A stretch of DNA of 47,065 nucleotides from a virus (lineage: Duplodnaviria; Caudoviricetes): IMG/VR virus record IMGVR_UViG_3300025723_001637, positions 1 through 47,065 of that record, one strand, 5' to 3'. Made by a program: the position numbers and the translations under genes. The notes beneath the pieces were generated by a model. It did no database searches, had not been told where the DNA came from, and saw nothing but the letters and a program-made list of their open reading frames with translations. This document shows positions 2,800 to 41,940 of this stretch, piece by piece (the stretch's first letter is position 1; every line of letters starts with the position of its first letter).

Positions 2800-3857
2800 C
2801 CAACTAATAACCCTTGATTTTGCAGGGTTTTTAGGGCACAATTTGCTGACATTGCCCAACTAAATTCTTTTCTAATAATATTACTGTTTTTTAGGGCATT
2901 TTGGGCCAGAAATGCATTGTGAGTTTTACTCAACATCATACACTCTGCAAGATGCGAAACACTGGGTTGTGCCCATACTCCCCAATTGTTGTCTGTTTCA
3001 GGATAGTGTGATCGATAAGTATCACATGTGACAGGAACTAGATCATAGTCCACAGGAACCATACTGGAAGTTATGTGTTGCAGATATTCAGTGTGCCCAC
3101 TGTAGTTGGTTGTGATTATGGGCAGTCCCGAAGCAGCAGCTTCAATTATAGGCAGGCCCCAGGCTTCTCCTTTGGTGGCTGCAACCAAAATATCACATTG
3201 ATTGTAGATTGCAGACATATTTTCTACTGCTCCTATTACCGCAGTGACATTATCTAATTGTAATGTTTTTACCAGTTGTTCTATTTCATTAATTCCGGGT
3301 TTGAGATAGTGAGATTTGATTATGAGTTCAATTGCAGGGTCGTTGCCAAATGCAACTGCAAAAGCGCGAATTGTTTCTTCCAAACTTTTCCGAGTTTCAT
3401 ACTTGCCTACAAATAAAAATCTAAAAGGGCGAGTATGTTTACTACGACTAAATGGATGATACATGTCAGGATCTACACCTTCGGGCACAATATGAATTTT
3501 GTTAGATGCTATGTTGTGTGCCAGTAAGATCTGTGCTCCCCAAGAACTAGGCACCCAAACACTGTCAGCTGGTGTTAAATTAATCTTAACTGTGGTGGGT
3601 ATTTTTGTGCTTTCAAATACACACCACTGAACATTGTGTCCTAAAAAAAACTCATGTATGTTTCCAGCGATAAAACTTATGTTGACATCATCAGGTTTGC
3701 TTTTGCTTATTGCGTCATAAAACTGTTGTTGATTTTCAAAATCTACTTCTTCTACCATATTGCCGATACCTTGTATACGACCAATGGCATCTGCAAAACC
3801 TGCAAAGTGTATACCAATACCTAAATTGTTACGTTTGCCAATCAGTCGTATTTTCAT
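2796..3857 (-). CDS. Glycosyltransferase, GT-B fold (GT4-like)
   Basis: 'FLFVGKYETRK', 'GEAWGLPIIEAAASGLPIITT' (E-x7-E), 'FSW'; ATGA overlap with the upstream gene puts the start at 3857. Confidence 0.9.
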   Translation of the reverse strand: MKIRLIGKRNNLGIGIHFAGFADAIGRIQGIGNMVEEVDFENQQQFYDAISKSKPDDVNISFIAGNIHEFFLGHNVQWCVFESTKIPTTVKINLTPADSVWVPSSWGAQILLAHNIASNKIHIVPEGVDPDMYHPFSRSKHTRPFRFLFVGKYETRKSLEETIRAFAVAFGNDPAIELIIKSHYLKPGINEIEQLVKTLQLDNVTAVIGAVENMSAIYNQCDILVAATKGEAWGLPIIEAAASGLPIITTNYSGHTEYLQHITSSMVPVDYDLVPVTCDTYRSHYPETDNNWGVWAQPSVSHLAECMMLSKTHNAFLAQNALKNSNIIRKEFSWAMSANCALKTLQNQGLLVG

Positions 3858-4300
3858 TTGTAAATCCATCCAAGGTCTTGTATTTTATGCATCCATGTAA
3901 ACACCGGCACTTCAAATTGTAATCTCCAAATTCCATTCCAACCAAGATAGTCATGACATTTTAGTTCCTCGGCCAAGATAATATTTTGATTTTTTTGTTC
4001 AGTGGCCCAGGGTTCCGGATAAATGGGATGATACAATCCTGCCCATATAAATTTTGGATCTGCAATACCAAAAAAACTTAGGTGTTCTATAACAACTGCG
4101 GTATCAGGATCATTATTGGTTTTGTTTACCAGTTCAACACTAATCTCTGATGTAGTGTGTGTTGAAAAACAAAAATCAAATTTGGTAGTACTGGTCAACG
4201 TCACAGAGTTGAGATTATTGTTGACTCCAAGATTAATCATTGGTGGATCAATTTTGTAAACTGGTCTAACAGTTAATGATAGTTCAACTGGGTATATCAT
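3854..4300 (-). CDS. Hypothetical protein
   Basis: ORF overlapping both the radical SAM and glycosyltransferase genes. Confidence 0.7.
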   Translation of the reverse strand: MIYPVELSLTVRPVYKIDPPMINLGVNNNLNSVTLTSTTKFDFCFSTHTTSEISVELVNKTNNDPDTAVVIEHLSFFGIADPKFIWAGLYHPIYPEPWATEQKNQNIILAEELKCHDYLGWNGIWRLQFEVPVFTWMHKIQDLGWIYK

Positions 4301-5591
4301 ATCCAAATTGAGTTAAAATACTATTCCATTCGGGGTATAGTTCTCGAGCATCATACCCGTACACACGATCCCATTTTTCACAATGACGAACCATGGCTTC
4401 CAACTGAGTCTCAGCGTCGACCGGATCTGGTGTGTTCAATACTGACAAACACATTTCTGCTTCTTCTTTGATTATTAATTGAAAATTGTTTATGTTACTG
4501 GCATTGTAATCCCCAGTAGCAATAATATGATCAAACTGCGACAAAAAATTTTTGTATTTTATTTTATAAAGTTCTTTGATTTCTTGTGGCAATATTTCAG
4601 CACACAAAAATCTTGGAGACTCACACAGATTGCTTTTAATTATAAATTTATTTTCCAGAGCGTATTGTAGTAGTTCAGTATAATATCCAATGGTCAATAT
4701 ACTAGGAGCAGGTCTCAATGACACAGTTATACTTGAGTTATTGCACCACTGTTGATATTTTTTGATATTGTCTAATACCTGACTTGTATCGGTTCCTTGT
4801 CGCTGATAAGCATTATGATTGTCCACAGTTTCTAAACTGATTTCCAATCCGACTCTGCGAAATTTACTCAATTTATCTAGTAACTCTGCACGAAAAACAG
4901 TGCCATTGGTTACAAAACTAAAACAAAGATCAAATCTTTTGTGTTCAATCATGGTATCGACTAAATCATCAAATCGGCGAGTCAGTAAAGTTTCTCCTCC
5001 CATAAAGTGAATATTATTTAAGTTAGGAATATCCAATAGTTGCAGTTTAAAGTTTTCCCAGACGTTGGAGTTTCTTGTCCAATCAGTGCCCAGGTATTTG
5101 TCACTGGATTGTATTCCCCACTGAACGTGTTGACTGGCAATAGTGCTGCTGGCTTCAGGACGACACATTTTACAAGCTAAATTACAAAAATTTCCTAAAT
5201 CTACGTGTAGATCCACTGGTTGTGTAGCAGTAGTAGTGCTGGAAAAATGTTTGAAGCCCGGGCTTTGCTGAAAACTAGGATCAAAAGCAGTGCGGGTAAA
5301 TATCACACTTTTTTGATTGCTCCTAAGTCTACGACTAGTTGCACCGTGAGTTTCTTCTGCATAGCATCTCTGGCACTCTGATAATTTTTCATTGCCTAAA
5401 ATTTTTTGTCTAAAATTTTTCACTGGATCACTGTTAAACCATTCGTTTATGCTCATTGTGGCAATGTTAAATTTTTTTTCTAAAGGTGAATATAATTTAT
5501 GTGCTTCTTGACAACAAATACCCAGGCTGCCGTCCCAATAGATATGTATTTCGTACCAAGGTGTGTTGCAAAAAATATTTTTATTGGGCAT
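4284..5591 (-). CDS. Radical SAM protein with N-terminal SPASM/twitch-like Cys cluster
   Basis: CNLACKMC (CxxxCxxC), 'FMGGETL', 'VTNGT'; N-terminal 'FCNTPW...GICC...CQRC'. Confidence 0.9.
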   Translation of the reverse strand: MPNKNIFCNTPWYEIHIYWDGSLGICCQEAHKLYSPLEKKFNIATMSINEWFNSDPVKNFRQKILGNEKLSECQRCYAEETHGATSRRLRSNQKSVIFTRTAFDPSFQQSPGFKHFSSTTTATQPVDLHVDLGNFCNLACKMCRPEASSTIASQHVQWGIQSSDKYLGTDWTRNSNVWENFKLQLLDIPNLNNIHFMGGETLLTRRFDDLVDTMIEHKRFDLCFSFVTNGTVFRAELLDKLSKFRRVGLEISLETVDNHNAYQRQGTDTSQVLDNIKKYQQWCNNSSITVSLRPAPSILTIGYYTELLQYALENKFIIKSNLCESPRFLCAEILPQEIKELYKIKYKNFLSQFDHIIATGDYNASNINNFQLIIKEEAEMCLSVLNTPDPVDAETQLEAMVRHCEKWDRVYGYDARELYPEWNSILTQFGYDIPS

Positions 5592-7207: not shown

Positions 7208-7783
7208 TTATTTTTTGAGATCACTGACATAATCGCAGATGTTGAGTTTGAGTGCTTCATCGGCGCCTAGCCAAACATCCTGCGGTGGCAATAGATATTT
7301 GCGTATGGCCTTGTCATCCAGTCCTGTAGCAGTTTTATACAGATCCAACATGCGCTGAAAAGTGAGTTCATACTCTTTTACCTGTGCAAACAGCTCATGA
7401 GCCTTGCCATCACTGCCCCAACTGTACTGATGACTCAGTATGCTTGTGTTGGGTGTGAGCACTCTACGACCTGCCGCGCCAGCAATGAATATGCAAAGTC
7501 CTGCGCTGGCTATTTGTCCTAGTCCCACAGTTTTCACAGGAATCTCACTGGCTCTCATGACATCTATCAGTGCAAAAGCAGATTGAAGATCACCACCTTC
7601 ACTGCAAATCATTAGCAGTAGTTCTTTGGCTTTCTTTTTGCGCACATGATTTTCTACCAGAATCCATTCAATGATTGGCTTGATGGATTCGGAACTGACT
7701 GGTTCCATAAAAACATACATGCCGGTATCATTCAACAGTTGTGAATGATCTTTTACCATAGTGTCATTGTCTGATGTGGCCAT
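7208..7783 (-). CDS. clpP: ATP-dependent Clp protease proteolytic subunit
   Basis: 'ICSEGG', 'GLGQIASAG' (Ser), 'ILSHQ' (His), 'DVWLGADEALKLNICD'. Confidence 0.9.
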   Translation of the reverse strand: MATSDNDTMVKDHSQLLNDTGMYVFMEPVSSESIKPIIEWILVENHVRKKKAKELLLMICSEGGDLQSAFALIDVMRASEIPVKTVGLGQIASAGLCIFIAGAAGRRVLTPNTSILSHQYSWGSDGKAHELFAQVKEYELTFQRMLDLYKTATGLDDKAIRKYLLPPQDVWLGADEALKLNICDYVSDLKK

Positions 7784-7847: not shown

Positions 7848-7878
7848 AAAAAAATCCAGTATCAAAATACTGGATTTT
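7848..7878 (-). terminator. Rho-independent terminator after the phasin-like gene
   Basis: Inverted repeat AAAATCCAGTAT-caaa-ATACTGGATTTT; the minus strand ends in a T7 run. Confidence 0.75.
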
Positions 7879-7896
7879 GGTAGAACAATCGCTGGT

Positions 7897-8166
7897 TTAT
7901 TTTTTACTTGGAGTAAATGCTTCAACCATTTTGTCCATGATTTTTACATAGTCAATCTTGGTAGCAGATTGTGCCGCTTTGACAGATTCACTGATCAAGG
8001 TTGTCATTGTATCTGTGCCTGCTTTGGCAGCTTTTTTGGTATATTCTGATTGTGCATCAACAAAATCATTGAGTGCGGCTGCAATATCTTTGTTTTGAAC
8101 AAAAGTGTTGACGAAAGTTTTTTTGCCAGTTTGGATGGCGTCGATTGTGGAATCAATTGCAAACAT
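7897..8166 (-). CDS. Phasin-like small amphipathic helical protein
   Basis: 89 aa, Ala/Thr/Lys-rich and helical (MFAIDSTIDAIQTGKKTFVNTFV...FVDAQSEYTKKAAKA); own promoter, SD and terminator. Family call is by recall, not search. Confidence 0.6.
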   Translation of the reverse strand: MFAIDSTIDAIQTGKKTFVNTFVQNKDIAAALNDFVDAQSEYTKKAAKAGTDTMTTLISESVKAAQSATKIDYVKIMDKMVEAFTPSKK

Positions 8167-8171
8167 TTTAT

Positions 8172-8190
8172 TTTCCTTTATTAAGCGAAA
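8172..8190 (-). promoter_or_regulatory. ROSE-like SD-sequestering hairpin
   Basis: UUUC-G-CUU-aaua-AAG-GAAA; U(U/C)GCU with a bulged G opposite the SD. Confidence 0.5.
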
Positions 8191-8228
8191 TGTTATCAAG
8201 ACCCGCCCCATGCAGCGTCTTGTATGTT

Positions 8229-8260
8229 ATTATATATGATAATTATCGTGCAATGCAACA
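8229..8260 (-). promoter_or_regulatory. Promoter with overlapping PhaR-like operator
   Basis: TTGCAT-18 nt-TATAAT; TGTTGCATTGCACGA (TGC-N3-GCA) overlaps the -35. Confidence 0.55.
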
Positions 8261-8261
8261 A

Positions 8262-8969
8262 CTATTTGTAGTGAATGGTCACTAATTTTAGCAATTCAAA
8301 TATTTTCAAGTACACCCAGCCGATGTCGATTTCCCACCATTTACGGCTGAGTCTTGGATTACCGGGGGCAATATGGTGATTGTTGTGCAACTCCTCGCCA
8401 CCCACAAGAATACCCCAAGGTACAAGATTATGACTATGATCGTGTGTTTTTGCATTTCTATATCCTATCCAATGTGCTAGGCCGTTTATGACTCCTGCTG
8501 CCCAGAATGGAATCCAAATCATCTGGATTCCCCAAATTACAAATCCCCAGGCCCCAAATACTGCAACATCTATAATCAACATTAGCATTATGCCCAATCG
8601 ACTGTGTTTGCTGTAGATTTCTTTTTCAATCCAATCATCCGGAGTGCCACGACCGTAAAATTTAACCATATCCAGATCTTTTACTGCTTTGCTGTATAAC
8701 CCTGCACCGGTAAACAACACACGCCAAATACCATCCACGTGCGGGCTGTGTGGATCTCCGTATCTATCACTGTATCTATGATGTTTTCTGTGTACTGCTA
8801 CCCATTGTTTGGTGATCATGCCTGTGGTCAGCCATAACCAGAAGCGCATAAAATGAGAAAGCACTGGATGAAAGTCCAGTGCTCTGTGAGCTTGTGCACG
8901 ATGCAAGTACAGTGTGACACATACTATAGTGATATGTGTCATCACCAAGGTAGTGATAATTTCATTCAT
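8262..8969 (-). CDS. Membrane fatty-acid desaturase (delta-9/DesA-like)
   Basis: Three His boxes: HRAQAH, HRKHH, HNNHH; 'WWEIDIGW'; transmembrane segments. Confidence 0.92.
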   Translation of the reverse strand: MNEIITTLVMTHITIVCVTLYLHRAQAHRALDFHPVLSHFMRFWLWLTTGMITKQWVAVHRKHHRYSDRYGDPHSPHVDGIWRVLFTGAGLYSKAVKDLDMVKFYGRGTPDDWIEKEIYSKHSRLGIMLMLIIDVAVFGAWGFVIWGIQMIWIPFWAAGVINGLAHWIGYRNAKTHDHSHNLVPWGILVGGEELHNNHHIAPGNPRLSRKWWEIDIGWVYLKIFELLKLVTIHYK

Positions 8970-8984
8970 TGCTACTATTTAGCA

Positions 8985-9293
8985 TCAGGCAGTTGCAACT
9001 GACTTCAATCGGGGTTCTGCATAGTTTTCTTCTACAACTAGATTATTGTCTCGTGCAAAATTCAAAGCAAATTCCCAGGCCAGTGGCTCAATATTTTGAA
9101 CTTCAGGATCTATTGCGACACATCTGACGCCATTGACCAGCACAGGCATGATATATTTGGAATATTTTACAGTTCTGATACCTGGTGGACTTTTGGTGCC
9201 ACAAAAGGCCAAGGTTGAACACAATCTTTCACTCCAGTCACTGGGTCGGAACAATGCGCCTGCGTTGGTTACACCTTGGATCAAGTATTTCAT
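8985..9293 (-). CDS. DUF3579-like protein
   Basis: 'IQGVT..G.LFRPSDWSERL...FALNFARDNNL' matches the betaproteobacterial DUF3579 signature. Confidence 0.8.
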   Translation of the reverse strand: MKYLIQGVTNAGALFRPSDWSERLCSTLAFCGTKSPPGIRTVKYSKYIMPVLVNGVRCVAIDPEVQNIEPLAWEFALNFARDNNLVVEENYAEPRLKSVATA

Positions 9294-9349
9294 TTGAAAC
9301 GTTCAGGGTAGTTTAGTCTTTCCCATTCTTCATCACTTACGGGCCACAT
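9290..9349 (-). CDS. 19-aa microprotein MWPVSDEEWERLNYPERFK
   Basis: Hand-translated; ATGA overlap with the DUF3579 start; begins 2 nt after the upstream stop. Confidence 0.5.
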   Translation of the reverse strand: MWPVSDEEWERLNYPERFK

Positions 9350-9351
9350 GA

Positions 9352-9438
9352 TTATTTCCCGTTGTGTGATAATCGTGCTTGGCGAGCTTCAGCAATAGCT
9401 TCAAGAATACTGTTGAAAAATTGTTTGAGTGTGTTCAT
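9352..9438 (-). CDS. 28-aa microprotein MNTLKQFFNSILEAIAEARQARLSHNGK
   Basis: Hand-translated; AGGA upstream; amphipathic helix pattern. Confidence 0.6.
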   Translation of the reverse strand: MNTLKQFFNSILEAIAEARQARLSHNGK

Positions 9439-9440
9439 TT

Positions 9441-9554
9441 TTATATCATCCTGTAGGTTTTGGTAAAATCATGCACATAGCGAGCAGCCTGTGCTTGACG
9501 TGATCGAATTGTTCTGATCATGGCGCGACGTAGAAATCTTCGAATTATTCTCAT
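9441..9554 (-). CDS. 37-aa Arg-rich microprotein MRIIRRFLRRAMIRTIRSRQAQAARYVHDFTKTYRMI
   Basis: Hand-translated; ATGA overlap with the upstream ORF. Confidence 0.6.
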   Translation of the reverse strand: MRIIRRFLRRAMIRTIRSRQAQAARYVHDFTKTYRMI

Positions 9555-9700
9555 AGTGTGCCATCATATCGTTGCTGGTTGTAGTATCTACACCAAAATT
9601 CTACTTCAGCGTTGCTTTTGGGTTGCTTGGAGGCAACAAATTTTTCCAAGCCAGATTGATAACCGGTGCCAAATAATTTATTGATAATTTTTTTAAACAT
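9551..9700 (-). CDS. 49-aa microprotein MFKKIINKLFGTGYQSGLEKFVASKQPKSNAEVEFWCRYYNQQRYDGTL
   Basis: Hand-translated; TAAGGA SD, TATAAATA promoter and 5' hairpin upstream. Confidence 0.7.
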   Translation of the reverse strand: MFKKIINKLFGTGYQSGLEKFVASKQPKSNAEVEFWCRYYNQQRYDGTL

Positions 9701-9745
9701 TGTGTGTTTCCTTAAATGGTAGATACTCATGGTTTCTACTAATAG

Positions 9746-9776
9746 TATTTATACTAATAATATTGCACCGCACATA
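9746..9776 (-). promoter_or_regulatory. TATAAATA late-type promoter with adjacent PhaR-like box
   Basis: TATAAATA at 9746-9753; ATGTGCGGTGCAA (TG-TGC-N3-GCAA) at about 9763-9775, in a divergent intergenic region. Confidence 0.55.
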
Positions 9777-9834
9777 AATGCTATTTTTTTTAGGGTTTTT
9801 GTTTTTAGAGTAAATAAAATGAAGGAGATAGCAA

Positions 9835-10176
9835 ATGCTAACATTTTTAAAGAAATTCTTATCACTCAAACCCAGGGTCATTCCAGAACCAGCTGCGCCA
9901 TACAAAGTAGAAGCACCTGTGCCTGCTAGCGCAGAAGCCGTCAAGACACCAGTAAAATGTGGATGCGGCCGTAGCTCAAGTGGCGAGTGTGTGGGATTAC
10001 ATGCCCTTAGTGCAGAACAGTGGGCAGTCAGTGATAAAAATCCAAACAAGATTGTGGTAGAAGAAAAACCAGTCAAGTCAACGCCAGTTAAAAAAACCCC
10101 AGCTAAAAAAACTGCAGCTAAACCCAAAACTCCTGCTAAACCACGTGCCCCACGCAAGCCCAAAGCGTCAAGCTAA
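9835..10176 (+). CDS. CDGSH-like Cys3His motif protein with Lys/Ala/Pro-rich tail
   Basis: Amphipathic N-terminus MLTFLKKFLSL; CGCGRSSSGECVGLH; tail KKTPAKKTAAKPKTPAKPRAPRKPK; AAGGAG SD. Confidence 0.65.
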   Translation: MLTFLKKFLSLKPRVIPEPAAPYKVEAPVPASAEAVKTPVKCGCGRSSSGECVGLHALSAEQWAVSDKNPNKIVVEEKPVKSTPVKKTPAKKTAAKPKTPAKPRAPRKPKASS

Positions 10177-16721: not shown

Positions 16722-17075
16722 TTAACGCTGAATTTCCCAAGTCCATGAATTACCTGGGTCAGTTGTTATCAACTGATCAATACGCTCAGCCAATTCATTG
16801 TAAAAACTGTCCATTTCTGAATTCCATGCACCCTGTAACTGATTTATCAAGGTACAACAGTACTTCCAATTTTTTTGTTGATAATTTTTTATAAGTGCGG
16901 CATGTAAATTTTGCCAACTCTCAACCAGTGGCAGTCTATCCAATGGCACTGATTCTACAACACAATAAGCGGTTGATCGGATTCCTTGATTGACAAAAAC
17001 AAAGGTATCTAGTTCTAGCACTGTAAATCTATCGCCTAGTTGTTCTGCACGTTCTTTGCCAAATATTATGTTCAT
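16722..17075 (-). CDS. Hypothetical protein
   Basis: ORF with AAGGA SD; 'FTVLELD' followed by a TPR-like helical pair. Confidence 0.7.
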   Translation of the reverse strand: MNIIFGKERAEQLGDRFTVLELDTFVFVNQGIRSTAYCVVESVPLDRLPLVESWQNLHAALIKNYQQKNWKYCCTLINQLQGAWNSEMDSFYNELAERIDQLITTDPGNSWTWEIQR

Positions 17076-17099
17076 GTAAAATCCTTTTAAATATGTATC

Positions 17100-17882
17100 A
17101 TGACTTTTGCATTTGATTTAATTTCAGACCTACATGTTGAAACATGGAACTCTTTTGACTGGACTGGCCAAGCCACAAGTCCAGTTTGTGTTGTTGTTGG
17201 CGACATAGCCAAAAATCTAGATTCAACCATTATGGTATTAAAACATCTTGCCAGTTGTTATCAAGCTGTTTTTTATATCGATGGCAATGACGAACACAGA
17301 TATCAATTACACGACTTGAATCTTAGCTACAGAGAACTTTCTGTCAAATTGGCAGGTATACAAAATCTTGTTTACATGAGAGACACTATTGTTGTCATAA
17401 ACGGGGTGGCAATTTTAGGAGCCAACGGATGGTGGAGTTACGATTTTGATCCCAGAATAGACATTGATCAAACTCAGGCATGGTGCAGAGATTATTATAA
17501 TATCAATCAAATTGCCATCAACAACATAGCGTCAGAAGCCTACAACGATGCGGCATATTTGATCAACAGTATAAAAAAATTACAAACACATCCAGACATC
17601 AAATCTATTGTTATTGCCACACACACTGTGCCTGCAGCATGGTTGATTGAACATGATATTTCACTGTCTTCTCAGACGCGATTTAATATCACTGGAAATC
17701 CTCATTTAGAACTTGCACTGCAAGAAGATACTGAGAGTAAAATTCATACTTGGTGTTTTGGCCATTATCATCAACCCGTGGATCGTATCGTCGATGGCAT
17801 TCGTTTTACCAACAACTGCAAAGGACGAAGCAACACCAAATGGTGCCAGCATCCATACTTTCCTAAACGTATTGAAATTTAA
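17100..17882 (+). CDS. Calcineurin-like metallophosphoesterase
   Basis: 'ISDLH', 'VGDI', 'DGNDEH', 'THTVP', 'FGHYH'. Confidence 0.9.
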   Translation: MTFAFDLISDLHVETWNSFDWTGQATSPVCVVVGDIAKNLDSTIMVLKHLASCYQAVFYIDGNDEHRYQLHDLNLSYRELSVKLAGIQNLVYMRDTIVVINGVAILGANGWWSYDFDPRIDIDQTQAWCRDYYNINQIAINNIASEAYNDAAYLINSIKKLQTHPDIKSIVIATHTVPAAWLIEHDISLSSQTRFNITGNPHLELALQEDTESKIHTWCFGHYHQPVDRIVDGIRFTNNCKGRSNTKWCQHPYFPKRIEI

Positions 17883-18191
17883 TCAGACTATTTCGGGCTC
17901 TAATTTAAGTTGCAGTGGATAATTTTGGCTTCTTGCAGACATAGTAACTTCTACACCTTTTTGTTCTGCAATTTCATAAGGAAGCACTGCCACTACTGCA
18001 CTGCCTTGGGTATGTATATTTTCTGTGATTTGCAACGCCGTATCTGTGGAATAACTAAACACAGTTATTAGACTTTCAATTACAAATTCTGCCGAAGTTG
18101 TGTTGTCATTGAGATATATTACTCGGAACATTGGTGGTTCTTTAATTTCGTGATTTATTTGTATTTTATTCTCTACATCCGACTGTGACAT
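17883..18191 (-). CDS. clpS: ClpS N-degron adaptor
   Basis: 'EPPMFRVIYLNDNTTSAEFVI', 'IHTQGSAVVAVLPYEIAEQK', 'YPLQLKLE'; start MSQSD after a GAGGA SD. Confidence 0.92.
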   Translation of the reverse strand: MSQSDVENKIQINHEIKEPPMFRVIYLNDNTTSAEFVIESLITVFSYSTDTALQITENIHTQGSAVVAVLPYEIAEQKGVEVTMSARSQNYPLQLKLEPEIV

Positions 18192-18216
18192 ACTGGTTCC
18201 TCTGTGATTATATCTG

Positions 18217-18240
18217 TACAGTGGGGTTACCCCCACTGTA
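18217..18240. other. Perfect 10-bp hairpin between hsp20 and clpS
   Basis: TACAGTGGGG-ttac-CCCCACTGTA, overlapping a minus-strand TAAATA. Confidence 0.65.
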
Positions 18241-18253
18241 TTTAACTTTTATA

Positions 18254-18712
18254 TTATTTTGTATATGTGATAGCAATAGTTTTTGGTTTCATTTCCTCAG
18301 GTATCTGACGTGTTAAATTAATTGTTAGTACTCCTAATTCAAGTTGTGCATCGGTGATTTCCACGTGGTCAGCCAATTGAAATTCTCTACGGAAATTTCT
18401 TTCGCTGATACCTTTGTGAAGATAAATCAAAGAGTTATCAGTATCTTGAGAAATTTCTTTTTGGTGCTGACCCTCAACAATCAAGAGATTTTTGTCTTTG
18501 GTAACTGACAAATTATCCTGGGCAAAACCTGCCACTGCAATACTAATTTTGTACTCATCGTCATTGACTTGTACAATGTCATAAGGCGGATAATTGGTGG
18601 AAGATTGTTGAGCATTGAGTCGCATCAAATCATCAAATAGATTATCAAAACCTATTCCAAATTTGTGTATTTGTGGAATATCAAAACTACGAAGCGAGAG
18701 GGTTTTTGTCAT
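18254..18712 (-). CDS. Small heat-shock protein Hsp20 (IbpA-like)
   Basis: 'IGFD', 'NYPPYDIV', 'IAVAGF', 'YLHKGISERNFRREFQLADHV', 'GVLTINL...IPEEMKPKTIAI'. Confidence 0.95.
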   Translation of the reverse strand: MTKTLSLRSFDIPQIHKFGIGFDNLFDDLMRLNAQQSSTNYPPYDIVQVNDDEYKISIAVAGFAQDNLSVTKDKNLLIVEGQHQKEISQDTDNSLIYLHKGISERNFRREFQLADHVEITDAQLELGVLTINLTRQIPEEMKPKTIAITYTK

Positions 18713-18786
18713 TTGTTTTCTCCTTTGTTAAGCAAGATGACTAAGCAGTAGACCCAACCATTGGCATCTACACAGTATTTATTATA
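18713..18786 (-). promoter_or_regulatory. hsp20 leader: TATAAT/TAAATA promoter, 5' hairpin, ROSE-like thermometer
   Basis: GTAGA...TCTAC hairpin at 18748-18771; CUU-G-CUU-aaca-AAG-GAG at 18720-18736. Confidence 0.7.
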
Positions 18787-18814
18787 CAACAAAGTCAATT
18801 ATAACAAAAGAGAA

Positions 18815-19036
18815 TTAGAACAATTTCTTTGGTAGTGTCTGTGCTTCAACTTGTTTTTTCCAACGGTTTTTGGCAGCAGATTTTTTGCGTTTTCTAGCAG
18901 TAGTGGGCTTTTCGTAAAATTCTTTGGCTCGCAGATCATTGAGCAATCCATCGTCTTGAATTTTTTTCTTAAACTTGCGTAGAGCCTTGTCTACATTGCC
19001 ATCTTTAACAATGACTGATCGACCATACAGTTTCAT
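18815..19036 (-). CDS. rpsU: Ribosomal protein bS21
   Basis: '[18 protein letters not shown]...[22 protein letters not shown]'. Confidence 0.93.
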
Positions 19037-20235
19037 GAGTTTTGTTGCGCCAGTGTCATAGGAGTATTTATCAGCTCTTTATTGATAACAACCCGCAATA
19101 TATTTTGTTTTCGGTACCTTGGCAAGTCAAACATGTGTGGTAATAGCACACGTTCTAACTCAGTTTGTAGTCCACGTGCACCAGTTTTTGACTGCAATGT
19201 TCTTTCAGCAATAATATTTAGACTTTCAGGATCAAATTCCAAAGACACCCCGTCTTGACCAAACAACCATTTGTATTGACTTACAAAATTGTTCTTTATA
19301 CCAGTCAAGATATCTATTAATTGCAATTTGGTCAAATCATGTAATGTTACATGACTTCCAAATCTGCCCACAAATTCAGGTATAATACCATAACGTACCA
19401 GATCATCAGGAGACACTGTGTCAGACAACAACGATTCATTGGTGACCATGGCACCAAAGCCAATGGATGTGCCCTTTAAGCGATTTCGAACAATTGAATC
19501 AAGTCCGACGAAAGCACCACTGGCAATGAACAAAATATTGGTTGTGTCAATTTCAACAGTTTCAGCTGAGGCCGATTTTCTAGTGCCATACACAGGCACT
19601 TTACACTTGGTGCCTTCTACCAATTTTAATAGTGCCTGTTGTACTCCTTCGCCGCTGACATCTCGAGTGACTATGGCACTTTCACTTTTCCTGGCTATTT
19701 TGTCAACTTCATCAATGAATATTATGCCACGTTGACAACGATATATATCGCCATTGGCAACAGCATACAATCTTCCTACCAAACTTTCTACATCATCGCC
19801 TACATATCCTGCTTCAGTCAGCGAGGTAGCATCTGCTACCACAAAAGGAACATCTAAGTATTTGGCCACTGACTTGGCAAGTAAAGTTTTGCCTGTGCCA
19901 GTGGGCCCAATCATCAAAATATTTACTTTTTGTATTTCAATATCTAAATCCACATTTGCTATGCGTTTGTAATGATTGGCGATGGCAACTGACAGTACCA
20001 TCTTGGCAAAATCTTGTCCTATCACATACTGATCTAAAAAGTCTTTGATTTCGCTAGGATCTGGTAGTTCACTTGCAGCACCGGTATCTGCTGTGACTTT
20101 CTTTCTATCTTTCAATAAATTTTCACAAAAGTCCACGCATGAATCGCATATGGCTGCATTGTTGCCAACTATGAGTTTGACCACTTGATCTTTGTGTTTG
20201 GCACAAAAACTACAATGAACTATGGAATCTGCCAT
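19033..20235 (-). CDS. clpX: ClpX ATP-binding subunit
   Basis: C4 zinc finger (CSFC...CDSC), Walker A GPTGTGKT, '[11 protein letters not shown]', 'IFIDEVDKI', '[14 protein letters not shown]', IGF loop, 'GARGL'. Confidence 0.96.
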
Positions 20236-22503: not shown

Positions 22504-24081
22504 TTAACATAAAGCCTTTTCCCACTCATTGGGATTGTATCCTTGATACAGATTAAGACGTAACCATTCATAGTAGTTTGGCATATTATCAGATACTAAA
22601 TCATGTTTCTTTTCATTGTATAAAATTGTGTGTCGGACCAGTTCATGCAGATTAGAATCCAATTTGGTTTCCAAAGACAATTTCCATCCAGCCGACAGTC
22701 CGGCCCACACAAAGTCTGCGTAAAAAATATGTCCTCCTAATGATTTGAAAAAACTATAATCTTTATTGTACATCTTATCTTTTACCAAATCCGTATGATT
22801 TAGTTGTTTCCCAAGATTGCTGCAGTATTTCCAAAAATCAGTGTCAGTGCGTTGTGTCAATGTAAAATGAACCAATAAAAATTCGTAGATATTATCAAAC
22901 ATACTACTCATCATAGAATTGTGTTTGTGCCAATTCAATGTGTTGGTTTTAAGAATTTTACTCAAACTCTTAATGGCATTAATTGTGGTAAACACCACGT
23001 TGGATTCCATTGGTTCAATGAAACCATTGCTCATTCCTATACTTATAACATTACCAGCAGCAGCGTTTTCCAGTCGCTGAGGAGTCCATCGTATAAGTCT
23101 AGGGCCAGATCTGATATCATTGGTCAATTGTGTTTTGAAATAATCTAATGCAGACAACTCGTCGGTATGTTTACTGCTGAAACAGTATCCGTTGCCCATA
23201 CGATGGTAAAGTCCAATTTGGAACCGCCAACCATTGGGTTCTGCAATGCTGTGAGTATGATTCAGCATCTCTATGGCAGGATCTTTATAATTGGTTTGAC
23301 ATACCCAAACTCTATCTATTGGATAATTATATTGTTTTTTTGCCCAACCCAGTTGATTAATCAACATACCACTTAGTCCAGTGGCATCCACAAACACATC
23401 GGCTTCAATCTGATATCCATTGTCCAAAGTCACAGACTCAACAGTGTCGCCATCATGATTTATTTTTACCACAGTAGACACAATATGATTTACACCCAAT
23501 GGAATTGCTATCTGATCACGTATAAATGCTCCAATTTTTTCCGCATTGATATGATGTGAGTGATTCCACGGGCTACTGAACAAAGACTGACCATCCTGCA
23601 TGAAACTTACATTTTTGTTCATGTAATGATAATGACTCTGAGAAAACCTATCCAAACGATCAATGACCTTGGTTCTCAGCATTTCTCCAAGGTGGTCATA
23701 GCTTTGAGTCTGACGTTGCTGACTTTTGGGTCTAAAATTTAATATACTGCGTGGTTGGTACACATCATGAAGAAAGCGATCTTCAGGAATAGGATACGTA
23801 AATCCAAAATATACAGATTCTCCTTGATTCAGCGTCCAATTAGTAAATTTGTTTCCTAGCTTGTGTACTGCGCCTATCTTGGGCATCCATTCATATTCTG
23901 GAACGCCCAACATGTTCAAAAAGTCAACAAAATGTGGACTCACTGACTCGCCTACTCCAATGATAGGAATAGATGGAGACTCAATCAAAGTTACATCTAT
24001 GTCTTTGTTAAAAGTTGCAAGATAGGCAGCTGCCATCCAGCCTGATGCTCCTCCGCCTATGATTGCCAGTTTTCTAAGCAT
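22504..24081 (-). CDS. Tryptophan halogenase-family flavoprotein
   Basis: 'IIGGGASGWMAA', 'IGVGES', 'ADVFVDATG', 'GWRFQIGL..RMGNGY', 'GFIEPMES'; start reassigned to MLRKL. Confidence 0.88.
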   Translation of the reverse strand: MLRKLAIIGGGASGWMAAAYLATFNKDIDVTLIESPSIPIIGVGESVSPHFVDFLNMLGVPEYEWMPKIGAVHKLGNKFTNWTLNQGESVYFGFTYPIPEDRFLHDVYQPRSILNFRPKSQQRQTQSYDHLGEMLRTKVIDRLDRFSQSHYHYMNKNVSFMQDGQSLFSSPWNHSHHINAEKIGAFIRDQIAIPLGVNHIVSTVVKINHDGDTVESVTLDNGYQIEADVFVDATGLSGMLINQLGWAKKQYNYPIDRVWVCQTNYKDPAIEMLNHTHSIAEPNGWRFQIGLYHRMGNGYCFSSKHTDELSALDYFKTQLTNDIRSGPRLIRWTPQRLENAAAGNVISIGMSNGFIEPMESNVVFTTINAIKSLSKILKTNTLNWHKHNSMMSSMFDNIYEFLLVHFTLTQRTDTDFWKYCSNLGKQLNHTDLVKDKMYNKDYSFFKSLGGHIFYADFVWAGLSAGWKLSLETKLDSNLHELVRHTILYNEKKHDLVSDNMPNYYEWLRLNLYQGYNPNEWEKALC

Positions 24082-24082
24082 C

Positions 24083-24238
24083 TTAGTCTTTTGGCAGACC
24101 AGTGGCTTCAGTGATGGACATATCAAAAGGTATCACACCATTAAATCTAAAGTTTTCTGGAACATCAGTGGTAATCGTATATTCATTTAGATTTTTTGCT
24201 CTGGTAATCAGCGCATCAACCATGTCTTTGTTGCTCAT
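24083..24238 (-). CDS. Truncated paralog (51 aa) of 22276-22491
   Basis: Hand-translated MSNKDMVDALITRAKNLNEYTITTDVPENFRFNGVIPFDMSITEATGLPKD; AAGGA SD. Confidence 0.75.
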   Translation of the reverse strand: MSNKDMVDALITRAKNLNEYTITTDVPENFRFNGVIPFDMSITEATGLPKD

Positions 24239-41249: not shown

Positions 41250-41570
41250 TTATACTCTAAAGCTTTCTCCGCAACCGCAACGGTCGCGTTCATTGGGATT
41301 GATAAATTCAAAGCCTTCGTTGAGGCCTTGTCGAACGTAATCTACAGTTAGTCCATTTAAGTAAACACTGCTTTTGGGATCTACAAATAATCGGCATCCC
41401 TGACACTCAATGCATTGATCATCAACGGTAGGACAATCTACGTATTCTAACACATAAGCAAGCCCGCTACAACCTGTGGTTCTTACTCCAAGTCGAATAC
41501 CTTCGCCACGACCACGTTTTTCTATAACCTGTTTTACCTTGTTGGCGGCCCGTTCAGTTAGCGAGATCAT
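41250..41570 (-). CDS. iscA: Fe-S cluster A-type carrier
   Basis: 'TTGCSGLAY', '[14 protein letters not shown]'. Confidence 0.95.
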
Positions 41571-41940
41571 GTTTTATTTTGTAATCTGCAACCGCTGCTT
41601 TGATGGCATCTTCTGCTAGGATTGAGCAGTGGATCTTGACTGGTGGAAGTGCAAGCTCTTGAGCAATCTCGCTATTCTTAATCTGTGCCGCGGCGTCAAG
41701 TGTTTTACCTTTAACCCATTCTGTGACCAACGAACTTGAAGCAATCGCAGACCCGCAACCATATGTCTTGAATCTCGCATCTGTGATGATACCATCTTTG
41801 ACCTTTATTTGTAGTTTCATTACATCACCGCAAGCCGGCGCTCCTACCATACCTGTGCCTACGTCTGTGTCATCCTTAGAGAAGGAACCCACGTTACGTG
41901 GGTTCTCATAGTGGTCAATCAATTGAGCTGAATATGCCAT
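41554..41940 (-). CDS. iscU: Fe-S cluster scaffold
   Basis: '[10 protein letters not shown]', 'APACGD', '[10 protein letters not shown]', 'LPPVKIHCS'. Confidence 0.97.

Follow-up and report, generated by a model that had tools for sequence, protein, structure and literature searches.

The stretch of DNA analysed here (the window; 47,065 nucleotides (nt)) is one 47-kb virus record, IMGVR_UViG_3300025723_001637, with phage-type genes for ribonucleotide reductase, DNA ligase, Hsp20, UvdE and virion proteins. Our study concerned a gene cluster at positions 7,848 to 10,176 (Table 1). A sequence-only reading had described this cluster as a candidate module directed at the polyhydroxyalkanoate (PHA) granules of the host. 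It comprised a phasin-like gene, a desaturase, a DUF3579 gene, four microproteins (mp1 to mp4) and a divergently transcribed gene for a protein with a Lys/Ala/Pro tail (PAKK protein), with TGC-N3-GCA boxes at two promoters. Both boxes were found where that reading had placed them, with cores at 8249-8257 and 9764-9772. Judged by reciprocal matrix searches, a blind scan of bacterial genomes and published motifs, these boxes are operators of the PhaR type, and binding of PhaR to them is predicted.

Complete relatives of the window, found via the gene for the phasin-like protein of 89 amino acids (aa), were records of 347-353 kb; the lineage is one of freshwater jumbo phages of roughly 350 kb. 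In total, 175 loci of the 89-aa family were collected, one of them (L096) being the window's own record. Of these, 57 with at least 150 nt of upstream sequence and less than 85% identity were retained. An estimated 710 or so stretches in IMG/VR match the gene, and these matches show that the family is common in lakes.

Table 1. Genes and sequence elements of the cluster (positions in the window)
Feature	Position	Strand	Remarks
89-aa helical-hairpin, amphipathic, weakly phasin-like protein	7897-8166	-	large phage-only family
5'-UTR (untranslated region) RNA hairpin of phasin-like gene	8196-8223	-	compensatory changes, G-U pairs
Sigma70-type -10 hexamer TATAAT	8229-8234	-	18 nt from left half of box 1
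PhaR-type operator box 1 (binding predicted)	8245-8261	.	overlaps -35 position; top window site, 18.6 bits with host-only matrix
DesA-type fatty-acid desaturase	8262-8969	-	own TAAATA element at 8976-8981; shorter than host copies
Palindrome TAGTGA-N4-TCACTA	8269-8284	.	here inside desaturase 3' end
DUF3579 gene	8985-9293	-	E 2e-30; homologues in 65/101 Burkholderiales genomes
mp4, 19 aa	9290-9349	-	in-frame fusion to DUF3579 in relative L101
mp3, 28 aa	9352-9438	-	look-alikes after mp1 in most relatives
mp2, 37 aa, basic, amphipathic	9441-9554	-	look-alike in L519
mp1, 49 aa, DUF3563-like family	9551-9700	-	first gene behind box 2; 3,444 homologues
Microprotein promoter: AGTAGAAACCATGAG element and TAAATA element	9726-9739 and 9746-9751	-	conserved
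PhaR-type operator box 2 (binding predicted)	9760-9776	.	13.2 bits with host-only matrix; weaker variant compared with most relatives
Divergent (PAKK) protein: N-terminal anchor helix, APYKVE motif, Cys/His insert, K/A/P tail	9835-10176	+	in relatives usually directly head-to-head with phasin-like gene

PhaR-type boxes at two phage promoters

By number alone the boxes do not stand out in the window. The bare TGC-N3-GCA 9-mer was seen 13 times with 18.4 expected, TGCRNYGCA 5 times with 5.6 expected, and the published 17-mer, with 3 mismatches permitted, 73 times with 73.6 expected. Since the 9-mer occurs at chance level, the significance of the boxes rests only on conservation in relatives and hosts. 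A matrix trained solely on bacterial phasin promoters (host-only matrix; for L366, 1 of its 30 training loci, the offset used was wrong) ranked the site at 8245 first and that at 9760 fourth over the window, with ranks 2 and 3 falling inside open reading frames (ORFs). Both sites contain the exact core TGCRNYGCA.

TGC-N3-GCA was present in 33 of the 57 promoters of the phasin-like gene, nearly always 87-105 nt upstream of the ATG and inside the palindrome ATGTTGCRNYGCAACAT. At a threshold of at least 10 bits the host-only matrix recognized 37 of these 57 phage promoters and 2 of 593 background sequences. Conversely, a matrix built from the phage sites recognized 28 of 30 Burkholderiales phaP promoters at the same threshold (background windows, 7/707). 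The phage-built matrix detected 40 of the 57 phasin-like promoters, but 32 of those sites had been used for its training. Because this count is partly circular, we prefer that of the host-only matrix. A blind scan of bacterial genomes with the phage consensus yielded 120 loci, which are a sample of about 6,000, and 143 of the 206 flanking ORFs were scanned. In 12 of the 120 loci a Phasin_2 gene lay directly downstream, and one PHB (polyhydroxybutyrate) depolymerase gene was also found; as a baseline, phasin-bearing bacterial genomes contain 1-6 Phasin_2 genes. The phaR promoter of the bacterial genome G120 holds a site of 15.8 bits.

Within 18 related phage records, all 11 zero-mismatch sites were located at the phasin-like promoter, and the other 14, one-mismatch sites taken from phage genomes lay mostly within ORFs. 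In four relatives (G002, G004, G009 and G010) the next strong site (22-23 bits) was found immediately before the mp1 operon, 7-29 kb away. Such boxed mp1 operons are often this far from box 1, which indicates that box 2 is conserved independently of linkage. From 40 records and 25 loci, 23 dereplicated mp1 promoters were obtained, of which 15 reached at least 10 bits with the phage matrix (background 9/589 at 6 bits or more). Conservation of synteny and boxes in related phages, named as a check in the sequence-only reading, was thus observed for the boxes and for the phasin-like gene, mp1 and the PAKK gene, the last being present in 41 of the 57 loci.

Motifs given in the available text of studies on PhaR are TG[N]TGC[N]3GCAA for H. 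seropedicae PhaR (PhbF; PMC3206438), WNWD2NYGCRNYGCRNH2WNW for S. meliloti (PMC12542648), NGCN3GC[GA]N3 for B. diazoefficiens (PMC10888616), and YTKNTGCRNYGCANMAR for R. eutropha (PMC12849132). From the last, box 1 differs by 2 and box 2 by 3 mismatches. As far as these sources go, the PhaR (PhbF/AniA)-phaP circuits of the four species and the phage promoters share the same 17-bp palindrome with its TGCRNYGCA core. In both cases the site lies beside a sigma70-type -35 region and ahead of a small amphipathic helical protein, and the matrices are interchangeable. The phage promoters differ in that each has a single box, whereas most host phaP promoters have two, and in their extra phage-specific elements and 5' hairpin. 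The phage product is 89 aa long and stays below the Phasin_2 cut-off, unlike host phasins.

A further difference is that the phage records searched lack the phaR, phaC and phaZ families. PhaR (PHB_acc_N, PF07879) was found in none of the 18 related phage records, and PhaC_N, PHB_depo_C and Esterase_PHB in none of five near-complete relatives; positive controls were detected in both searches. The search of the remaining genome for phaC or phaZ that had been suggested thus brought no such family to light in these five relatives. Since the related phages do not carry phaR, host PhaR is the likely reader of the boxes, and the proposal that the phage senses its host via PhaR is supported at this level.

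The position of the boxes also fits an operator. In 32 of 38 box-bearing (predicted) promoters with a -10 hexamer, this hexamer follows the left half-box at a distance of 17-18 nt, and in 10 of 14 promoters without a box TTGACT or TTGATT occupies the box position. This fixed spacing and the canonical -35 where the box is lost indicate that the box takes the place of the -35 region, which would be expected of a repressor site. The box 1 promoter, whose -35 matches at only 3 of 6 positions, was missed by a sigma70 consensus scan. According to the available text on R. eutropha, PhaR represses phaP1 near the -35/-10 region and is sequestered by nascent granules (PMC12849132). Control of both phage promoters by host PhaR is predicted from these data with considerable confidence.

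Products of the boxed genes

A Shine-Dalgarno site and the lengths of homologues support the start of the 89-aa ORF behind box 1. AlphaFold2 predicted helices at residues 2-22, 26-69 and 73-84, i.e. a hairpin and a third helix, with a pLDDT (predicted local distance difference test) value of 83, and the hydrophobic moment exceeded that of shuffled sequences in 85-89 of 91 family members. Phasins are homo-oligomers. The designation of the gene as phasin-like holds with respect to the gene itself, its amphipathic helices and its PhaR-type box, but the window protein reaches only 16.9 bits with Phasin_2 (PF09361), under the cut-off of 24.9. Nevertheless, Phasin_2 is the commonest Pfam match of the family: 28 of 91 close members match at E<=0.05 (best E 1.8e-4), and 8 of 149 distant members at E<=0.005, mostly in the same register (profile positions 45-98). 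In two of five whole phage genomes (G002 and G005) the 89-aa gene is the sole Phasin_2-scoring stretch. The three nearest named Atlas clusters were Phasin_2, PHB_acc and PhaE, all of them PHA-granule proteins, at scores of 0.82-0.87 which are to be taken as leads. We consider it plausible from these matches that the protein works like a phasin, with demonstrable membership in Phasin_2 not reached.

P0212, from a contig of 943 nt, joins a LacI helix-turn-helix to the C-terminal portion of the phasin-like domain; this single sequence may be a chimera and was set aside. In a different, T4-like phage group (L003-L015) the 89-aa family has a more distantly related member, which lies between replication genes and Hsp20 and is followed by mp1 in some of the loci. 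The PhaR box is absent there and another structured leader is present.

The four microprotein genes behind box 2 are coupled, with overlaps of 4 nt or gaps of 2 nt, at the coordinates first reported. Comparison with the close relative L101 revealed 20 synonymous and 4 non-synonymous codon changes, which indicates that they are real genes under purifying selection. Of three amphipathic N-termini proposed initially, that of mp2 was significant against shuffled sequences (p 0.013), and mp1 was supported at family level (114 of 120 members beating the shuffle), but as single sequences mp1 (p 0.10) and mp3 (p 0.15) were not; mp4 gave p 0.82. In L101, mp4 is fused to DUF3579 (L101:1660-2028), whereas it is separate in the window, and an RNA contig matches the split form.

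mp1 resembles DUF3563 (PF12086), a family of small Burkholderiales proteins, in an hhalign comparison (80.6%, E 1.3e-5), although none of 17 members exceeded the PF12086 cut-off and mp1 has no Pfam match. The promoters of bacterial DUF3563 genes (Burkholderiales loci L332-L350) carry the box in 14 of 19 cases compared with 10 of 386 in the background. These upstream boxes suggest that DUF3563 likely belongs to the PhaR regulon of the hosts. In the phage locus L085, the box, the phasin-like gene, mp1, a true DUF3563 gene (33 bits) and a small ORF form a single operon. G120 also encodes an mp1 homologue, with a small ORF behind it and only a degenerate site of 5.1 bits. Our literature search found no paper naming DUF3563.

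The divergent protein with its PAKK-type tail was confirmed, and in 32 of the 41 loci carrying it, its gene and the phasin-like gene are immediate head-to-head neighbours. In relatives, box 1 lies in the intergenic region adjoining this gene; in the window, the microprotein-DUF3579-desaturase block separates the pair, so that the gene faces box 2 instead. The motif P[YF]K[VIL][ED] is present in 30 of the 41 proteins, and 23 of the 41 N-termini are amphipathic. PhaF combines a hydrophobic or amphipathic N-terminal anchor with a histone-like PAKK(A) tail. C. necator PhaM is described as having hydrophobic segments at its N-terminus and PAKKA motifs at its C-terminus, by which granules are tied to the nucleoid (PMC9049629). 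The phage protein has a similar layout of an N-terminal hydrophobic or amphipathic anchor and a histone-like PAKK(A) tail, but has only about 100 aa compared with 32 kDa for PhaM and no match to a PHA-granule family, and K/A/P tails are common and non-diagnostic. No PHA-related Pfam family was found in 38 PAKK members, histone-like HC2 matched in 5, and the Atlas matches were viral clusters without names. The Cys/His insert CGCGRS-x2-G-x-C-x-GLH (window about 9955-10010) is shared by 8 of the 41 homologues and has no Pfam match; we take it to be reminiscent of CDGSH iron-sulfur motifs.

Interpretation and alternative explanations

The explanation that we favour, with moderate confidence as a whole, is that promoters controlled by host PhaR drive a phasin-like protein and a DUF3563-like operon acting on granules. 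Free host PhaR would block the -35 region of both phage promoters, and growing PHB granules would sequester PhaR and thereby release them. The phage would then make the weakly phasin-like protein and the DUF3563-like microproteins, with a predicted action at the granule surface. Coating of granules by the 89-aa protein is a claim on which we consider the chances to be even. As a viral phasin the protein might change how host PhaR, PhaP and PhaZ reach the granule, with stored carbon then supporting infection, and the PAKK protein might anchor in the granule or membrane and bind DNA; these are the most conjectural steps. Mobilisation of carbon is speculative and would need host enzymes. A more far-reaching version seems doubtful to us, namely that a widespread clade of freshwater jumbo phages has its own toolkit for PHB granules, switched by the host sensor, in which a viral phasin coats granules and displaces PhaR and PhaP, a PhaM-like tether fixes granules to phage DNA and DUF3563-like proteins act as modulators, the storage organelle thereby being turned to fuelling infection.

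Several observations weigh against the favoured explanation. A strong box is missing in 17 of the 57 phasin-like and 8 of the 23 mp1 promoters, which implies that PhaR control is dispensable in many lineages, and box 2 of the window scores only 7.0 bits with the phage-built matrix. PhaR can also act as an activator, as stated for phaP3 in the available text (PMC12849132). No family member exceeded the Phasin_2 cut-off, the best of 149 reaching 22.6. Profile and structure comparison of the 89-aa protein, suggested as a check by the sequence-only reading, gave a mixed result. With a widened profile hhalign aligned it to phasins in the same register, at a probability of 16% and E 0.0016 (reversed control, 0.14), but narrower profiles gave a probability of 0.6% and Foldseek found no match in the PDB at E<=0.001. 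VIA-align returned generic helices only (best Z 8.7), phasin being absent from the top 50, and a PDB sequence search gave nothing below E 0.04. A profile search of 201 Burkholderiales genomes, run without a positive control, yielded no homologue of the 89-aa family. Transmembrane-type anchors, present in 18 of the 41 PAKK proteins, could sit in membranes just as well as on granules. At these promoters, two more conserved elements indicate additional regulators. Finally, no cultured phage was found with the 89-aa gene or DUF3579.

Alternatively, PhaR might serve the phage as a sensor of host carbon status only, and the 89-aa protein and microproteins might act on membranes, lipids or host proteins instead of granules, the phasin likeness resulting from convergence of amphipathic helices. 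Phasin homology remains under all thresholds, the PAKK anchors alternate between amphipathic and transmembrane types, and a desaturase is a recurrent neighbour (8 of 57 loci). Furthermore, PhaR regulons reach beyond PHB genes (PMC12542648). We nevertheless regard this alternative as rather unlikely, for the box and the protein point to phasins independently: Phasin_2 is the top Pfam match, the gene is unique in this respect in two genomes, and all three nearest named Atlas clusters, as leads, are PHA-granule proteins. The palindromes might instead be bound by a phage-encoded or other regulator that shares the sequence with PhaR by chance. The two apparently phage-specific elements flanking the same promoters, and a search for phage PhaR that covered PF07879 only, leave some room for this. 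It is improbable given that phage and host matrices are interchangeable and that this box also precedes the DUF3563 genes of hosts, which are homologous to mp1; in a host with PhaR, the sites would be expected to bind it anyway.

The fixed position of the boxes bears on two other explanations. If hundreds of replicating phage genomes titrated PhaR as decoys, host phaP and phaZ would be derepressed and control of the adjacent genes would be incidental. This would suit phages that lack depolymerase families of their own (none in five near-complete relatives), and S. meliloti PhaR represses depolymerase genes in the available text (PMC12542648). But only about two strong sites occur per 350 kb, without arrays, and the -35 position with its canonical substitute upon loss fits an operator, which makes decoys very improbable. 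We consider it hardly credible that the boxes are neutral relics carried along with phaP-like and DUF3563 genes captured from a host. Host DUF3563 genes are indeed boxed, the pair of mp1 homologue and small ORF in G120 is like that of the phage, and boxes have been lost in about 30% of the lineages. In contrast, the palindrome is near-perfect at a fixed offset although the phage proteins are only 50-65% identical.

The favoured explanation, PhaR-controlled expression of granule-directed proteins, has a parallel in cyanophages, where phage genes are controlled by host PhoBR via pho boxes (PMC10976474). In that system, which documents the use of a host nutrient sensor by phages for phosphate, a host transcription-factor site likewise reads nutrient status. 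As far as the available text describes it, PhoBR is a two-component activator responding to phosphate, whereas here a repressor sequestered by a carbon-storage organelle is predicted. At the level of listings, our literature searches found no report of a phage that reads PhaR or encodes a phasin. If the explanation is true, infection would be tuned to, and maybe drain, a major bacterial carbon reserve. The likely assignment of the uncharacterised host family DUF3563 to the PhaR regulon is a by-product of this work, and viral phasin-like proteins have a possible use in PHA biotechnology.

PHB-storing Betaproteobacteria are abundant in lakes. Homologues of DUF3579 (Table 1) and of the desaturase (33 of 41 genomes) are widespread in the order Burkholderiales, to which the Cupriavidus genome G019 belongs. 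This distribution suggests, but does not prove, a betaproteobacterial host, which we expect to store PHB. Lake RNA from two runs contained contigs matching the genes for the phasin-like protein, desaturase, DUF3579, microproteins and PAKK protein; 12 such contigs fell on 4.5 kb and 3 on a 20-kb control. These contigs show neither strand nor level and cannot rank the genes. Since both runs were picked by means of this same stretch, they provide a weak hint.

Neighbouring genes and additional elements

The sequence-only reading was correct on the identities and places of the desaturase and the DUF3579 gene, but not on their membership in the module. The desaturase scored 50.8 bits with PF00487 (cut-off 29.7; E 2.6e-13), shows three His boxes in its translation, and reached 395 bits with NF049918 (cut-off 400) over profile positions 10-239 of 385. 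After dereplication of 80 viral desaturase loci 52 remained, of which none had a box within 300 nt upstream and 2 had one within 1,500 nt; host desA genes had a box in 2 of 20 cases. We therefore rejected the desaturase as a regulon member. It carries TAA[AG]TA at most 20 nt from the ATG in 26 of 36 parsable loci and is a loose, recurrent neighbour of the phasin-like gene. DUF3579, present in 1 of the 52 desaturase loci and boxed in 1 of 25 host copies, was rejected likewise. As judged from these surveys, both genes are lineage-specific passengers inserted between the head-to-head pair and stand outside the circuit; hence the module is smaller than first proposed. In the lineage of the window, read-through from box 2 into DUF3579 and the desaturase is possible. 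The same block is inserted in L453, together with GNAT and ferritin-like genes. Genes for a GNAT acetyltransferase are found repeatedly in the microprotein operons of relatives, and in L453 the ferritin-like gene precedes box 1 (L453:2099-2653, 3828-4529; L001:2690-3259).

Additional elements were found at both promoters. A TAAATA-type element, which we take to resemble a T4 late promoter, directly follows the box in 21 phasin-like promoters. The core of TCAGTAGAAACCAYGAG (window 9726-9741) is present in 18 of the 23 mp1 promoters. In G002, G004 and G011 two direct repeats of this element, 42-43 bp apart, flank the PhaR-type box and occur nowhere else in those genomes. The 5'-UTR hairpin of the phasin-like gene shows compensatory changes at 6 of 10 pairs and frequent G-U pairs. 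A search of Rfam gave no match for it; its role may lie in mRNA stability or in protein binding. The palindrome TAGTGA-N4-TCACTA was rejected as a Burkholderiales operator, with 5 of 151 genomes being below the reversed control. An exact match is single-copy in all five phage records, between the PAKK and phasin-like promoters, and in the window the reading frame of the desaturase runs through it.

Beyond the cluster, the window holds an auxiliary set rich in proteostasis functions, comprising ClpP, protease-related and AAA genes, Hsp20, and tryptophan halogenase-like and NifU-like genes (7208-7783, 16722-20235, 22504-24126 and 41554-41940). ClpP (26 of 57 loci) and UvdE (30 of 57) are frequent neighbours of the module.

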